64,000 bases of DNA. Origin: a virus. Shown piece by piece: positions 54,796 to 59,130 of the stretch (position 1 is its first letter; every line of letters starts with the position of its first letter). The stretch covers positions 104,654 to 168,653 of the IMG/VR virus record IMGVR_UViG_3300042317_000390; one strand, given 5' to 3'. The position numbers and the translations under genes were made by a program. The notes beneath the pieces are model-generated. The model was not told the DNA's origin and searched no databases. It saw nothing but the letters and a program-made list of their open reading frames with translations.

Positions 54796-55791
54796 TTATT
54801 CGTGATGATACACTACATTACTACCTGAACCATAAAATTGAAAGTCGTAAATTCTGCAATCTTTATGATTGGTATAGATAGCACCTTCCACAGCTGTTCT
54901 TTTATTTTCTGGAACGTAGAAAAGAAAGAATCCACCGCCGCCTGCGCCTAATAGTTTACCACCAATCGCTCCAGCGTTAATAGCCGTGGTATAGATTTGA
55001 TCGAAATAGTCTTGAGTGATATCTTCACATACTGTTTTCTTTTCAATCCAAGATTCATGAAGTAATTCACCAAACTGATCTAGCTTACCTTTATGAATAA
55101 GATCCATAGCAGTATAAGCTTTTTCCTTTTGACACTTTACTTTATTGAACTTTTCAATATCAATAGTCATAGCCTTTTGCTGCTTCTGAAGAATGTTATT
55201 AGCATTTCTTCCTCTACCAGAATAGACTAGCATAAGGTTCTTTTCAAGCTTGCCAACGTTCGGATTAGTTAAGCGAACTTCTTCAACATCAACTTCGCCG
55301 TTTCTCTTAAACTTTAGAAGATTGAAACCACCGAAAGCAGCTGCGTATTGATCCTGCTTACCGACAGGATAACCGCACTTTTCCATTTCAATCTGACAAG
55401 CAATCTCTGCTACGTATCTACGAGTGCTATTATCATATTTGGTAGTGGATAGTGCCTTCACTAGACCAACAGCAAAGGCAGAAGAACTACCAAGACCAGA
55501 CCCCTTAGTTACAATATCTGAGATTGATGCAACCGTAATCTCTTTATTGATATCATAATACTTTAAAGTCTCACGAGTAATAGCGTGCTGCATCTGCTCA
55601 ATATCGTGATGTTCTTCTACGTCATCATACATACAACGTACGCCCATATGGGGAACTTTGTGAGCAAAGACATAGATAAACTTGTTAATCGTTACGGAAA
55701 GGGCGGCACCGTCATCCCTTTCATAGAATGACGGCATATCGCTACCCCCGCAAAAGAAACAAATACGTAGCGGAGTTCTTGTTAAGATCAT
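54796..55791 (-). CDS. hddA: GHMP kinase, D-glycero-alpha-D-manno-heptose-7-phosphate kinase-like
   Basis: TPLRI.F.GGSD, GSGLGSS, GKQDQYAAAFGG, GGKLLGAGGGGF. Confidence 0.85.
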   Translation of the reverse strand: MILTRTPLRICFFCGGSDMPSFYERDDGAALSVTINKFIYVFAHKVPHMGVRCMYDDVEEHHDIEQMQHAITRETLKYYDINKEITVASISDIVTKGSGLGSSSAFAVGLVKALSTTKYDNSTRRYVAEIACQIEMEKCGYPVGKQDQYAAAFGGFNLLKFKRNGEVDVEEVRLTNPNVGKLEKNLMLVYSGRGRNANNILQKQQKAMTIDIEKFNKVKCQKEKAYTAMDLIHKGKLDQFGELLHESWIEKKTVCEDITQDYFDQIYTTAINAGAIGGKLLGAGGGGFFLFYVPENKRTAVEGAIYTNHKDCRIYDFQFYGSGSNVVYHHE

Positions 55792-55793
55792 GA

Positions 55794-56795
55794 TTATGTC
55801 CTATAAACAAACATCTTTTCTGGGAACTTTCTAGAATCAGCATCTGGATACTGATTGACTAGATCCTTCAGCATATGGTTCCACTTGTTCTTAATAAACT
55901 CAATGTTATAACGGCTATCAACAAAAAGCTTATTAAACTTAACCATATTAGTTTGGTTGTTATCTCTAACAAGCTGAATAGCAGCATTTAGATTACCAGC
56001 AAACATACTAGCGTGAAGGTTCTTATCTTCCATATTGCCGTGGTACATTACGTTTAGCCCACCGGAAGTTTCTGGTAAAGCGCCAAGATTAGGATGAACA
56101 CATACCAGACCAGCGGACATAGCTTCGAGCATGGCTCTGCAGGATGTTTCTGTCCAAATAGAGGGGTAAGCAAAGATATGAGCCGAGTTAAGACTTTCTC
56201 TGAGTTGATCATTGGGAGTAAAACCGTGATAGGTCATCTGTGGATGATTACGGATTCTATCGTATAGAGGTTCAAACTGAGCATCCACTTCATCCCAACC
56301 GTAGATCTTAAACGATGAGAATACGTCAAGATGAATATCTGACTGATCGGTTGCTAGAAGCTCGAAAACAGGGACTAGAATTTCTAATCCTCTTTGCGGG
56401 GTAGACGTATAAACTAGTCTAATCTTATCGCTAGGCTTCTCTAGAACGCTTTCGGGGGCGGGATCGATACCCGATTCTAGGATAATAGATTTATTATCCA
56501 TAGGTAGACCGTGAACCAGACAATAACGCTGATACTGCCAGTTAGAGATAAAGACGAACTTATGGTATCTGTCTCTCCAAGCTGGATCTCTAAACTTAGC
56601 AGACTCTGGATCTTCTGGTAGATCATGACACCAGAAAATTCTAATCTTATCTTCTTCTAGTTCACGCTCACGAGAACAGATAATCTGACAATTATCTAGA
56701 AGATCCTGATCTAGAATGTTTGCTAGTTTACGCTTAGCAAGCTCAGTTCCTCCCTGAGCCTTTTCTGAAATCTCGTTTTCTTCAAACCCCTTCAT
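55794..56795 (-). CDS. GT-B (GT4-like) glycosyltransferase
   Basis: GGTE, YTSTPQRGL, YPS...ETSCRAMLEAMSAG, GALPET. Confidence 0.85.
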   Translation of the reverse strand: MKGFEENEISEKAQGGTELAKRKLANILDQDLLDNCQIICSRERELEEDKIRIFWCHDLPEDPESAKFRDPAWRDRYHKFVFISNWQYQRYCLVHGLPMDNKSIILESGIDPAPESVLEKPSDKIRLVYTSTPQRGLEILVPVFELLATDQSDIHLDVFSSFKIYGWDEVDAQFEPLYDRIRNHPQMTYHGFTPNDQLRESLNSAHIFAYPSIWTETSCRAMLEAMSAGLVCVHPNLGALPETSGGLNVMYHGNMEDKNLHASMFAGNLNAAIQLVRDNNQTNMVKFNKLFVDSRYNIEFIKNKWNHMLKDLVNQYPDADSRKFPEKMFVYRT

Positions 56796-57535: not shown

Positions 57536-58074
57536 TGTCCACCTACATTCTGTTCTATAATATTAGCAGCTTCAAGGAGATTCTTAGCATAAAAGTCTGG
57601 TTTAATATGCAAGTATTCCGAAGGTGCGTTGTATATTTCACCAAGGTATATAGTCTTTACTCCGGCATTATGTCCGGCAACAACGTCACGCCAAGTATCG
57701 CCAATCATCCAGCTACGTTCTTTTGTAACGTGCCATTCTTTAACGATCTTATCTAGCATACCTGATTTTGGTTTATACTCTTCTGTGCCACGAGTTCTCG
57801 CAGCCTGAATGGTATCAACGTTTAATTTATTCTTAATGAGAAGATGAATAGCATCCATCGTCTCTTCTGTTGTATAACCATCATCAACGTCTGGTTGATT
57901 AGTTACAACATGAAGAGAGAACCCAAGCGAACGCATCTTCTTGACTGCCTCTTCAACTCCATCGATGAAATCGAATTCAGCGTAATACCAAGGACAAACG
58001 TGCTTTGGGTCTTCTCTACCGTGAACTAGTTCGTTAATTGTACCATCACGATCTAAGAATACTGCTTTTACCAT
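57532..58074 (-). CDS. gmhB: heptose-1,7-bisphosphate phosphatase (HAD)
   Basis: AVFLDRDGTIN, VVTNQ, KP..GM, MIGD..RD..AG. Confidence 0.88.
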   Translation of the reverse strand: MVKAVFLDRDGTINELVHGREDPKHVCPWYYAEFDFIDGVEEAVKKMRSLGFSLHVVTNQPDVDDGYTTEETMDAIHLLIKNKLNVDTIQAARTRGTEEYKPKSGMLDKIVKEWHVTKERSWMIGDTWRDVVAGHNAGVKTIYLGEIYNAPSEYLHIKPDFYAKNLLEAANIIEQNVGGQ

Positions 58075-58652
58075 TTTGTGGCCTTTACCTGAAGAACAGG
58101 ATTAGATACTAAGCAATGCCAAACTACTGCTTGGAAAGCTTCTGAGTGAGGTGTAACTCTTTCGGCGTATAGCGGAGGAACAACTACAACATTATCACCC
58201 TGAGTTGCAGCGTAACCGTCTTTTCTACCAACGATACCTAGAACCTTTGCGCCGTATTCTTTTGCTAGATCAATAGCATTGATTAGCGCTAATGATACGT
58301 TCTTCTCTTTATTACCACCACCAACGGATAGAATAAAGATAGCGTCACGGCTACAGAAATGACTTGTCTTTAGATACTCATTGAATATAGTATCAAAGCC
58401 TTCGTCGTTTGTACGAGCAGTTAGTTCTGATACGTTATCGGTTGGACATAGAGCATCAACGCCACATAGCTTACGAAGATCGTTAACCATATGGGATGCA
58501 TTACCAGCAGATCCACCAACGCCTAATACGAAGATGCGACCTGCGTGATCTCTAATATCCTTGATTGTCTTAGCTAGTTCTTCGATCTGATTCTTATCAA
58601 TAGCATCAGAGATTACTGAAACTTCTGTGAAGTAATTATCGGTATGACTCAT
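58068..58652 (-). CDS. gmhA: sedoheptulose-7-phosphate isomerase (SIS)
   Basis: GVGGSAGNASH, LTARTNDEG, SVGGG, E..Q...H. Confidence 0.85.
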   Translation of the reverse strand: MSHTDNYFTEVSVISDAIDKNQIEELAKTIKDIRDHAGRIFVLGVGGSAGNASHMVNDLRKLCGVDALCPTDNVSELTARTNDEGFDTIFNEYLKTSHFCSRDAIFILSVGGGNKEKNVSLALINAIDLAKEYGAKVLGIVGRKDGYAATQGDNVVVVPPLYAERVTPHSEAFQAVVWHCLVSNPVLQVKATKW

Positions 58653-59130
58653 TATTGACTCTCATTCTCAATTCGCTTGATGAATAACCATGTCTACGCT
58701 CAACATAGACCAATTCGATCTTTCTTTCTTCGCAGATCTCTTGGCCGTAAATTAACTGACCCTTATACTCTTCGCCAAGAAATCTCTTTCTGACTTCTAG
58801 AACGCTTAACATATTAACTAGGTCAAGTTCTGTTTCGTAAGGAATAATCTGATCAACCCAACGGCAACCTTCTAGTTGAGCGTAGCGTTCAAATACGGTT
58901 TGGATTGGTTTATTCTTGATGGCGGGGCGGTCAATCGTGGGATCAGTTTGTAACCCCACGATTAGGTAATCGCACTGTCTCTTACAAGTCTCTAGCATAA
59001 TAGAATGACCTGCGTGGAACAAATCAAAAGAACCAAAAGTGATTCCTATATTACGTCTATAGCAATCCTTTTCGGTCGAATAAGGATAAGCTTCAGGTAT
59101 AGCAGTAGTACAATATCCAGTATTTAACAT
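58636..59130 (-). CDS. HIGH-family nucleotidyltransferase (TagD / HldE-C-terminal-like)
   Basis: GSFDLFHAGH, LIVGL.TD, ER...L, YSSSELR. Confidence 0.85.
   Translation of the reverse strand: MLNTGYCTTAIPEAYPYSTEKDCYRRNIGITFGSFDLFHAGHSIMLETCKRQCDYLIVGLQTDPTIDRPAIKNKPIQTVFERYAQLEGCRWVDQIIPYETELDLVNMLSVLEVRKRFLGEEYKGQLIYGQEICEERKIELVYVERRHGYSSSELRMRVNNESYR

Follow-up and report, generated by a model that had tools for sequence, protein, structure and literature searches.

A six-gene operon of a T4-like phage predicted to make and transfer a nucleotide-activated higher sugar, most likely a heptose

A conserved six-gene operon in a T4-like lake phage

Which sugar would a phage build with six tightly packed genes of nucleotide-sugar metabolism, and to which acceptor would the sugar be transferred? 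The question is raised by a T4-like lake phage (IMG/VR record IMGVR_UViG_3300042317_000390), of which we analyzed a 64,000-nt window while searching the whole 168.6-kb genome for alternative enzymes. A first-pass annotation of the window had described the locus at 54796-59130 as an apparently complete nucleotide-heptose pathway with its own glycosyltransferase. The operon and its neighbors are:

60257..60952, minus strand: class I methyltransferase (Methyltransf_24, 29.8 bits)
59831-60091, minus strand: glutaredoxin nrdC (CTFC glutaredoxin motif)
59553-59831, minus strand: WYL_2/DUF2693 gene (WYL_2, 51 bits)
59147..59509, minus strand: speD, S-adenosylmethionine decarboxylase (AdoMet_dc, 71 bits)
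58636..59130, minus strand: HxGH (cytidylyltransferase-fold) nucleotidyltransferase, 164 aa (PF01467, CTP_transf_like, 59.8 bits)
58068..58652, minus strand: GmhA-like SIS isomerase, 194 aa (SIS_2, 39 bits; gmhA is the best NCBIfam match)
57532..58074, minus strand: HAD-IIIA phosphatase, GmhB-like, 180 aa (GmhB PRK08942, 82 bits; TIGR00213, 77 bits)
56795..57535, minus strand: transaldolase (Glu/Phe type), 246 aa (TAL_FSA, 131 bits; TIGR02134, 258 bits, cut-off 282)
55794..56795, minus strand: GT-B, GT4-like retaining glycosyltransferase, 333 aa (Glycos_transf_1, Glyco_trans_1_4)
54796..55791, minus strand: GHMP sugar-phosphate 1-kinase of the HddA/WcbL (alpha-anomer heptokinase) clade, 331 aa (NF049969 HddA, 151 bits, full length)
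54361-54759, minus strand: conserved acidic 132-aa protein, pI 4.3, a downstream anchor
53496-54353, minus strand: T4-type RNase H, rnh, a downstream anchor (5_3_exonuc_N, RNaseH_C)

The open reading frames fall exactly at the limits first reported and their families agree, bearing out the description of six contiguous, mostly overlapping minus-strand genes in the order nucleotidyltransferase, isomerase, phosphatase, transaldolase, transferase and kinase. The successive junctions are -17, -7, -4, -1 and +2 nt, which fits a translationally coupled operon. A survey of synteny in other phages, which the first-pass annotation had proposed, recovered the same six-gene order in about 70 IMG/VR phage loci, with identities of 48-84% for the kinase and 45-86% for the transaldolase. 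This recurrence is far beyond chance, although all of these loci share a single T4-like backbone in which rnh adjoins the module. The 132-aa protein and RNase H come after the kinase in all relatives. The WYL_2/DUF2693 gene and nrdC are synteny anchors common to phages phiM12, DLP_6 and Cr30.

The speD gene is a constant neighbor, lying upstream of the nucleotidyltransferase gene in nearly all relatives and directly adjacent to it in some, while about 0.85 kb is inserted between the two in the closest relatives; a link of speD to the sugar pathway is not evident.

Enzyme families and the proposed pathway

We favor, with a probability of about 0.55, the reading that the module makes a higher sugar in nucleotide-activated form and transfers it, that D-glycero-alpha-D-manno-heptose is the most likely sugar, that the cassette came from bacteria and that the acceptor is more likely something other than DNA. 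Family membership and gene linkage together suggest each of the steps. The transaldolase, the proposed maker of the ketose phosphate, would move a three-carbon unit from fructose-6-phosphate to erythrose-4-phosphate, yielding sedoheptulose-7-phosphate, which the GmhA-like isomerase would convert to heptose-7-phosphate. The HddA/WcbL-like GHMP kinase would then phosphorylate C1 in the alpha configuration, and the GmhB-like HAD phosphatase is proposed to remove the distal 7-phosphate. The HxGH nucleotidyltransferase, in place of the usual HddC, is proposed to convert the sugar-1-phosphate to an NDP-sugar, here NDP-heptose with CDP or ADP as the most likely nucleotide, and the GT4 enzyme would transfer the sugar with retention. 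All operon enzymes score under the NCBIfam equivalog cut-offs, so that their families are established while their exact substrates are only predicted.

The kinase can be assigned at the level of the clade. After HddA, the next NCBIfam family reaches only 68 bits, and the PDB matches to WcbL (4usm/4usk), 3k85 and 4n3o, which include Campylobacter jejuni HddA, have E-values of 1e-39 to 1e-35, compared to 1e-8 for fucokinase, the next PDB family. By sequence the kinase is thus firmly a member of the heptokinase clade. Its cellular relatives have a HAD gene as neighbor in 53 of 80 cases and a GmhA gene in 48 of 80. The phosphatase has E. coli GmhB (3l8e and 2gmw) as its best PDB matches and carries the DxDGT, TNQ, KP and GD motifs.

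The nucleotidyltransferase fits a heptose pathway less well. It shows FHAGH and SSSELR motifs and matches phrog_7878 (108 bits); its best NCBIfam model is rfaE_dom_II at only 64 bits (cut-off 181), followed by TagD at 54 bits. In the PDB its best matches are ECT and TagD, with CCT also matched, so that it is no less similar to phospho-alcohol cytidylyltransferases than to HldE domain II. We counted this against heptose, together with the putative pairing of a kinase of the HddA (alpha) type with a nucleotidyltransferase of the HldC fold and with the phosphatase alignment, which lacks the Cys/His zinc loop seen in E. coli GmhB. Counted in favor of the pathway, the operon's nucleotidyltransferase, kinase and transferase have no rival of these types in the 168.6-kb genome, where we found zero matches to NTP_transferase (PF00483; HddC-type guanylyltransferase), zero to PfkB kinase (PF00294) and no second GT1-family transferase. 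The earlier claim of a complete pathway with its own transferase holds in part: the five enzyme types and the transferase are all present, while the nucleotidyltransferase is not of the HddC type and heptose is only the likely product.

Two known heptose pathways can be set beside the module. The GDP-D-glycero-alpha-D-manno-heptose pathway (GmhA, HddA/WcbL, GmhB and HddC/WcbM) of Aneurinibacillus thermoaerophilus and of the C. jejuni and Burkholderia pseudomallei capsules has a GmhA-family isomerase, a GHMP heptokinase, a HAD-IIIA phosphatase and the same order of chemical steps. The phage module differs from it by the HxGH cytidylyltransferase-fold enzyme that replaces the HddC-type NTP_transferase, by its own transaldolase, by two insertions in the isomerase and by the missing zinc loop of the phosphatase. 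The ADP-L-glycero-beta-D-manno-heptose pathway (GmhA, HldE or HldA plus HldC, GmhB and HldD) shares the HldE domain II fold of the nucleotidyltransferase, whereas the phage lacks a PfkB kinase genome-wide and an HldD in the operon, and its GHMP kinase points to the alpha, not the beta, anomer.

A transaldolase-linked isomerase subfamily shared with bacteria

Aligned with 1vpx and 1wx0, the transaldolase has the conserved Asp, Glu, Schiff-base Lys, Phe and Arg and is thus a true transaldolase rather than the fructose-6-phosphate aldolase (FSA) type. Phages are well known to carry transaldolase as an auxiliary gene, and speD, another cyanophage-type auxiliary gene, adjoins the operon; still, the reading that this transaldolase merely sits inside the operon as an independent gene boosting the pentose-phosphate pathway, as the likewise small phage-encoded cyanophage talC does, is highly improbable and already close to refuted, since it shares only about 29% identity with talC (range 28-31%), belongs to a different, TIGR02134-like subfamily (258 bits, against only 61 for fsa_talC), invariably has its place between phosphatase and transferase in the roughly 70 phage loci and recurs in an identical isomerase-phosphatase-transaldolase order in sugar clusters from bacteria of many phyla. 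We rejected a stand-alone pentose-phosphate or Calvin-cycle gene of the talC type on the same grounds. The phage enzyme is closer to the transaldolases of the bacterial cassettes (39-50% identity), and its linkage to one isomerase subfamily in both phages and bacteria indicates that it belongs to the sugar pathway. The proposal that it supplies precursor, rather than acting as the cyanophage gene, is thereby strengthened.

The isomerase scores 49.6 bits against the NCBIfam gmhA model (cut-off 209), and its catalytic and metal positions keep His, Asp, Glu and His. The 13 best PDB matches of its family profile are all GmhA, followed by DiaA. Six residues are inserted in the phosphate loop, and four more (TPHS) precede the catalytic Glu. 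From its sequence and gene neighborhoods, the enzyme is a distinct, transaldolase-linked GmhA subfamily. In 63 of 80 bacterial loci holding the phage-type isomerase a transaldolase adjoins it, and in 45 of the 80 the isomerase-phosphatase-transaldolase order is identical. A dedicated transaldolase accompanies a divergent isomerase in all six tal-bearing kinase loci and is found in none of 42 canonical GmhA loci; among the phages and bacteria examined, none has a transaldolase beside a canonical GmhA.

The three genes form a pre-assembled cassette, frequent in bacteria as well, with at least 594 loci. Bacterial cassettes sit in sugar-tailoring clusters of many phyla, and some versions, as in Labrys, use a CTP_transf::PfkB fusion. 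To our knowledge, this cassette has never been studied; the transaldolase-linked GmhA subfamily and its sharing between phages and bacteria are new.

Heptose or octose

Sedoheptulose-7-phosphate is already present in every cell. An altered phosphate loop and an exclusive coupling to transaldolase are hard to explain if the substrate is the ordinary compound, and they lend some weight to a lincosamide-type logic, in which the transaldolase would be the committed C-C bond-forming step, adding a C3 unit to ribose-5-phosphate or another aldose phosphate, and the unchanged isomerase, kinase, phosphatase and nucleotidyltransferase steps would lead to an NDP-octose or some other higher sugar that is not a heptose. 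The lincosamide GDP-octose pathway of Streptomyces lincolnensis, the only characterized pathway with the identical five enzyme types, resembles the phage module in design only: it makes an octose from ribose-5-phosphate for an antibiotic, LmbN bears a carrier-protein domain, the Lmb gene order differs and LmbO is an NTP_transferase-type guanylyltransferase. [quoted passage not shown]

We regard this alternative as unlikely, although it survives better than the others. The phage kinase is no nearer to the kinases of tal-bearing loci than to ordinary HddA (34-43% identity to both), and the catalytic residues of GmhA recur in the isomerase. Moreover, unbranched aldo-octoses are, as far as is known, very rare in bacterial glycans, while the cassette is very common. 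On balance, a heptose is the likely product rather than an LmbR-type octose.

Origin of the module

The transferase appears to have a different history from the cassette. Its orthologues in Cr30, DLP_6 and phiM12 share 41-45% identity, and the phiM12 order nrdC-DUF2693-GT-x-x-rnh makes it syntenic with the operon's transferase, whereas phiM12 has no sugar-synthesis genes. The same nrdC-to-rnh position without these genes indicates that the transferase predates the pathway and, on sequence and synteny, is the ancestral gene in this T4-like phage group (phiM12, Cr30 and DLP_6). The isomerase, phosphatase and transaldolase would have arrived from bacteria as a single cassette, inserted around a transferase gene that stood between nrdC and rnh in this group beforehand.

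The acceptor of the sugar

A GT-B fold, an E-x7-E motif and a Gly-rich loop together identify the transferase as a GT4 retaining enzyme, as judged from its AF2 model (pLDDT 92.7) and from 47 orthologues in which E216-x7-E224 and G15-G16 of the N-terminal Gly-rich loop are invariant. The best folds to the model are TarM, BshA, HepE, PimA, GtfA/SdgB and SenB. GT4 enzymes of the TarM, PimA, BshA and SdgB type have polymer, lipid, small-molecule or protein acceptors. They are soluble or peripheral, so the earlier argument that the lack of a transmembrane segment favors a cytoplasmic acceptor does not discriminate. DNA, virion proteins and host surface glycans had all been proposed as acceptors; we consider a non-DNA acceptor, either a protein or a glycan or lipid of the host envelope, more likely than DNA, the case for DNA being weakened by a complete relative that has kept the module despite lacking TET/JBP, ADDT and ThyA.

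Were the sugar placed on phage DNA, 5-hydroxymethyluracil made after replication by TET/JBP would be glycosylated by the GT4 enzyme, and the product would be a nuclease-blocking hypermodification resembling base J or heptosyl-5hmC. The genome does hold a TET/JBP-unknown-ADDT-P-loop kinase cassette at 38739-42964, of a type described in PMC13229309; TET/JBP also occurs in the transferase-bearing Cr30, DLP_6 and relatives G001, G005 and G006, and genes of replication and nucleotide metabolism (nrdC and rnh) surround the operon. A further precedent is a phage cluster with HAD/APH, a CTP_transf-type nucleotidyltransferase and a GT-B enzyme ('contig 53') that made mono- and di-heptosyl-5hmC in E. 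coli (bioRxiv 10.1101/2023.12.21.572611). It resembles the present module in its HAD enzyme, kinase, nucleotidyltransferase, GT-B and handling of heptose. It differs in that its heptose-7-phosphate is supplied by the host, whereas our phage has its own GmhA and transaldolase, and in that its kinase is APH-type and fused to the HAD domain rather than GHMP. It also sits with a C5-methyltransferase and TET and was shown to act on DNA, while the phage module persists in a TET-less genome.

That genome, G002 (149 kb, terminal repeats, 100% complete), contains the whole module, yet TET/JBP, ADDT and ThyA were absent from it in HMM searches and the four TET-cassette proteins had zero homologues in tblastn, which argues against hydroxymethyl-pyrimidine DNA. 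Phages of the phiM12 type also carry the transferase without TET/JBP, and we therefore rejected a source of hydroxylated or hydroxymethylated pyrimidine as a partner that co-occurs with the transferase. In addition, the TET cassette lies 13 kb away on the opposite strand and has its own downstream chemistry (a kinase and an amino-acid transferase), transferases of this family are acidic proteins (pI 5.3-6.6), and the 50 best folds do not include T4 beta-glucosyltransferase. The arabinosyl-5-hydroxycytosine pathway of RB69/DLP3, in which the isomerase is a KdsD-type arabinose-5-phosphate isomerase and a ThyA homologue makes 5hoC (PMC13326640), is similar in its T4-like phage setting and in its clustered isomerase, kinase, HAD phosphatase, nucleotidyltransferase and GT4-like transferases, but the phage SIS protein matches only GmhA/DiaA and its genome has no ThyA homologue. 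With this balance, we consider DNA a quite improbable acceptor.

Virion proteins (fibers, sheath or capsid) come next, and we hold them no more probable. Virion glycosylation has precedents in mycobacteriophage and chlorovirus; the close folds include GtfA and SdgB, two GT4 enzymes that O-glycosylate Ser, and a 30%-identical homologue lies inside a tail/structural block of the Pelagibacter podophage HTVC027P. A single TATAAATA late-promoter-like motif, found 33 nt upstream of speD, also precedes the sheath, scaffold and capsid genes. Against this, the motif upstream of speD is absent in 27 of 27 distinct relatives checked, and the operon lies in an early/replication-type minus-strand block, away from the structural genes.

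A nearby methyltransferase

In our preferred pathway, the sugar may also be O-methylated by the methyltransferase at 60257..60952, which is probably a sugar O-methyltransferase belonging to the module. This protein has zero PDB matches by sequence. Its orthologue lies inside the module, between the nucleotidyltransferase and the SIS isomerase, in loci L107-L109, and between the kinase and the 132-aa protein in locus L070. In locus L060 the module methyltransferase matches TylF and Methyltransf_24, a similarity at the level of the family to the gene at 60257..60952.

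Organization and enzymes of the sugar module

Six minus-strand open reading frames fill positions 54796-59130, with junctions of -17, -7, -4, -1 and +2 nt between them. These are the positions at which the first-pass annotation had placed a six-gene operon, and domain searches returned the same gene families that it had named. All six scores are below the NCBIfam equivalog cut-offs and therefore establish the families, but not the substrates.

Genes of the module
58636-59130, minus strand: HxGH nucleotidyltransferase with a cytidylyltransferase fold (rfaE domain II, 64 bits; TagD, 54 bits)
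58068-58652, minus strand: SIS_2 isomerase (closest named relative gmhA)
57532-58074, minus strand: HAD-IIIA phosphatase (closest named relative GmhB)
56795-57535, minus strand: TAL_FSA transaldolase (TIGR02134, 258 bits)
55794-56795, minus strand: Glycos_transf_1 transferase of the GT4 family
54796-55791, minus strand: GHMP kinase (HddA, 151 bits)

Searches of the whole genome for an NTP_transferase, a PfkB kinase or a second GT1-family gene found none, which leaves the operon enzymes as sole candidates for these steps. The kinase is the firmest assignment. In a PDB sequence search, it matched the heptokinases WcbL (4usm and 4usk), 3k85 and C. jejuni HddA (4n3o) with E values of 1e-39 to 1e-35, followed by fucokinase as the next family (1e-8). 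GmhB-like and GmhA-like genes neighbor the kinase's relatives in 53 and 48 of 80 cellular loci, respectively. A profile of 38 phage isomerase orthologues was compared to structures; its 13 best matches are all GmhA, followed by DiaA, and none is a KdsD-type arabinose-5-P isomerase, the other identity that had been raised for this protein. The phosphatase resembles E. coli GmhB most closely; the HAD motifs are present in it, but the Cys/His zinc loop of GmhB is not. Aligned to solved small transaldolases, the transaldolase retains the Asp, Glu, Schiff-base Lys, Phe and Arg residues; a Glu/Phe pair is characteristic of transaldolases and a Gln/Tyr pair of fructose-6-P aldolases. The nucleotidyltransferase carries FHAGH and SSSELR motifs, and its assignment is ambiguous between HldE domain II and the phospho-alcohol cytidylyltransferases. 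The transferase has E216-x7-E224 and G15-G16 conserved across 47 orthologues, and its AlphaFold model (pLDDT 92.7) matches the folds of TarM, BshA, HepE, PimA, GtfA/SdgB, SenB and MshA, which are GT4 enzymes with widely differing acceptors.

From these assignments, the module would be a variant of the known nucleotide-heptose pathways with an unusual nucleotide-activating step. The hybrid combination of HddA-type kinase and HxGH nucleotidyltransferase could give rise to a nucleotide sugar such as CDP- or ADP-alpha-heptose, of which we know no description.

The transaldolase is coupled to a distinct isomerase subfamily

The data supports the proposal that the transaldolase is a pathway gene supplying precursor. 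In six of the 80 cellular kinase loci, belonging to Bacteroidota, Chromatiales, Terriglobia, Melioribacter, Methylococcales and a CPR bacterium, there is also a transaldolase with 39-46% identity to the phage enzyme. The isomerases of precisely these six loci share 48-54% identity with that of the phage, compared to 21-39% for the other 42; no further phage gene was matched in the six. In transaldolase-linked isomerases, both phage and cellular, the phosphate loop is extended by a 6-residue insertion (S-V-G-G-G-x4-N-x-S versus S-G-S-G-N-S), and a 4-residue TPHS insertion lies ahead of the catalytic Glu...His; the aligned His/Asp/Glu/His positions are common to these and the canonical isomerases. 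The phages with a canonical GmhA, Cr30 and SynMITS9220M01, have clusters without a transaldolase. Its linkage to this isomerase subfamily in phages and bacteria places the transaldolase in the sugar pathway. We rejected a pentose-phosphate role of the cyanophage type, given this linkage and an identity of only about 29% to the cyanophage transaldolase.

A genome search with the profile of phage isomerases recovered at least 594 loci. Among the best 80 of these, a transaldolase is adjacent in 63, and the exact order isomerase-phosphatase-transaldolase occurs in 45. Labrys okinawensis, Bradyrhizobium manausense and Rhizobium panacihumi are cultured isolates with such loci. The cassette is partnered by an HddA-like kinase and an NTP_transferase in R. 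panacihumi and a Methylococcales MAG, and in Labrys by a CTP_transf::PfkB fusion whose domain order is the reverse of HldE. An SDR, a Gfo/Idh/MocA protein and a UDP-glucose-dehydrogenase-like protein recur nearby as tailoring enzymes. Three bacterial clusters built on the three-gene cassette (L274:7980-13507, L276:5329-9844 and L188:6153-11548) have interchangeable activating enzymes and a shared tailoring set. The bacterial clusters look like an uncharacterized surface-sugar pathway, and the tight linkage of a dedicated transaldolase with the special GmhA subfamily is a sign of an uncharacterized sugar pathway in hundreds of bacterial genomes. The best 120 hits of a transaldolase homologue search were all phage-like metagenomic proteins. 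A literature search for a transaldolase inside heptose gene clusters found nothing; the transaldolase-isomerase core is undescribed.

Heptose or a larger sugar

Because sedoheptulose-7-P is an ordinary metabolite, the exclusive coupling of a dedicated transaldolase to an altered isomerase raises the question of why a heptose pathway would need either. In lincomycin biosynthesis, LmbR moves a C3 unit onto ribose-5-P to form octulose-8-P, which LmbN, LmbP, LmbK and LmbO take to GDP-octose (PMC5854111, PMC4351081, PMC12945683). It is the only characterized pathway that shares the module's enzyme set, a likeness at the level of enzyme types. This precedent, together with the exclusive coupling of a dedicated transaldolase with the modified isomerase, speaks for an octose instead of a heptose; we nevertheless consider an octose unlikely. 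In its broadest form, the proposal would make the isomerase-phosphatase-transaldolase trio an undescribed, widespread cassette (at least 594 bacterial and hundreds of phage loci) whose transaldolase, as LmbR, is committed to a non-standard ketose phosphate, with an octose or other higher sugar as its product and not a heptose. We hold this to be doubtful; if true, an activated octose or other higher sugar would be made in Alphaproteobacteria, Acidobacteriota, Verrucomicrobiota and others, besides this lake phage. A heptose would be the most likely product, because the kinase falls in the heptokinase clade, the isomerase has GmhA-like catalytic residues and the cassette is abundant.

Spread of the module and the older transferase

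The gene order from speD (59147-59509) through the nucleotidyltransferase, isomerase, phosphatase, transaldolase, transferase and kinase to u132 (a conserved acidic 132-aa protein) and rnh (T4-type RNase H) is kept in about 70 IMG/VR loci, across which the lowest identities are 48% for the kinase and 45% for the transaldolase. Viral loci that encode kinase relatives number more than 550. Should the proposed function hold, freshwater T4-like phages would, as a large group, be equipped with a complete supply route for an activated higher sugar, one that starts in central metabolism and ends with the transfer step.

Several loci vary the module's content. The methyltransferase at 60257-60952, which has no PDB sequence match, has orthologues within the module in L107-L109 and L070. 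In L060, the transaldolase is separated from the transferase by genes for an SDR, a Gfo/Idh/MocA oxidoreductase and a TylF-like O-methyltransferase. The module lacks the transferase in L077 and the nucleotidyltransferase in L081 and L085. Phosphatase orthologues (L041-L111) fall into two classes of identity to this phage's enzyme, 63-86% and 32-43%, whereas the neighboring genes change gradually, which suggests that the phosphatase has been replaced within the phage lineage.

The transferase predates the sugar pathway in this phage group. Orthologues with 41-45% identity to it are encoded by Cr30, DLP_6, the phiM12 group, RHph_I1_18 and an Ochrobactrum phage; Cr30 combines its orthologue with a canonical GmhA and an HddA. 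The phiM12 order is nrdC-DUF2693-GT-x-x-rnh, without sugar-synthesis genes; this phage has nrdC, the WYL_2/DUF2693 gene, sugar genes flanking the transferase, u132 and rnh. Given the shared position, the supply genes were added around a resident transferase. The literature on Cr30 or phiM12 yielded nothing relevant on the transferase or heptose genes. DLP_6 has a different sugar-gene set at the same genomic position (L039:5294-6728), in which a methyltransferase is accompanied by a gene annotated as nucleotide-diphospho-sugar transferase and by one whose product weakly matches GT29, the sialyltransferase family; the set adjoins nrdC and the orthologous GT4 gene, just upstream.

Acceptor of the sugar

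The acceptor's identity separates three roles for the module: remodelling of the host surface (for example, excluding other phages), decoration of the particle, or a new DNA modification. Four packed genes elsewhere in the window bear on the last of these.

38739-42964, plus strand: TET/JBP dioxygenase (PF12851, 87.6 bits), 374-aa protein, ADDT and P-loop nucleotide kinase 3

They form a post-replicative thymine hypermodification cassette of the published thymine-oxidising type (PMC13229309); the 374-aa protein has no Pfam match and is possibly the ParB-like activator described there. A known phage cluster places heptose on 5hmC (bioRxiv 10.1101/2023.12.21.572611). However, one relative, whose 149-kb genome has terminal repeats and is rated complete, keeps the whole module, and neither an HMM search for TET/JBP, ADDT or ThyA nor a tblastn search with the four cassette proteins found any match in it. 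In addition, phiM12 has the transferase without TET/JBP, and the transferase family is acidic. DNA is consequently not the favored acceptor. The first-pass annotation's interpretation stands as to the transaldolase; its argument that a transferase without a TM segment favors a cytoplasmic acceptor does not discriminate, since the GT4 enzymes nearest in fold are soluble or peripheral for every kind of acceptor. A transferase homologue in a pelagiphage podovirus is located among tail genes, a weak hint of a virion or host-recognition function. We found no usable statement on DNA modification in the DLP6 paper.

Genome, habitat and promoters

The window is the final 64 kb of a 168,653-bp IMG/VR record graded complete by CheckV. 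The phage is a T4-like myovirus whose major capsid protein resembles those of Stenotrophomonas phage DLP_6 (69% identity), Sinorhizobium phiM12 (64%) and pelagi- and cyano-myophages (about 62%). With pmoC in its genome, it is one of the pmoC-carrying phages of fresh water and probably infects a methanotroph.

G000:C1:31477-32193 (this phage's genome, outside the window), minus strand: pmoC/amoC gene (PF04896, AmoC, 358 bits)

A search of sequencing runs found near-identical DNA in many lake and freshwater metagenomes and listed no RNA datasets with the stretch. At the DNA level, the operon's sole match among GenBank phages is 84 nt of a Vibrio phage cytidylyltransferase.

Scans for sigma-70 promoters and terminators were uninformative (24 sites versus 27 expected). 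The T4 late-promoter motif TATAAATA lies 5′ of speD in this phage and in 0 of 27 distinct relatives, and it was discarded as evidence that the operon is expressed late. Other copies, at 11651, 12295, 18604, 25873, 27104 and 28978 on the plus strand, lie 30-60 nt 5′ of structural genes, including the sheath (18660), scaffold (25911) and major capsid (27146) genes, which fits T4-type late promoters of this phage. A Clp protease family gene (61251-61817, minus strand; PF00574, 112 bits) lies within the early-type minus-strand block, with tRNA-Met and tRNA-Leu genes nearby (62855-63011).
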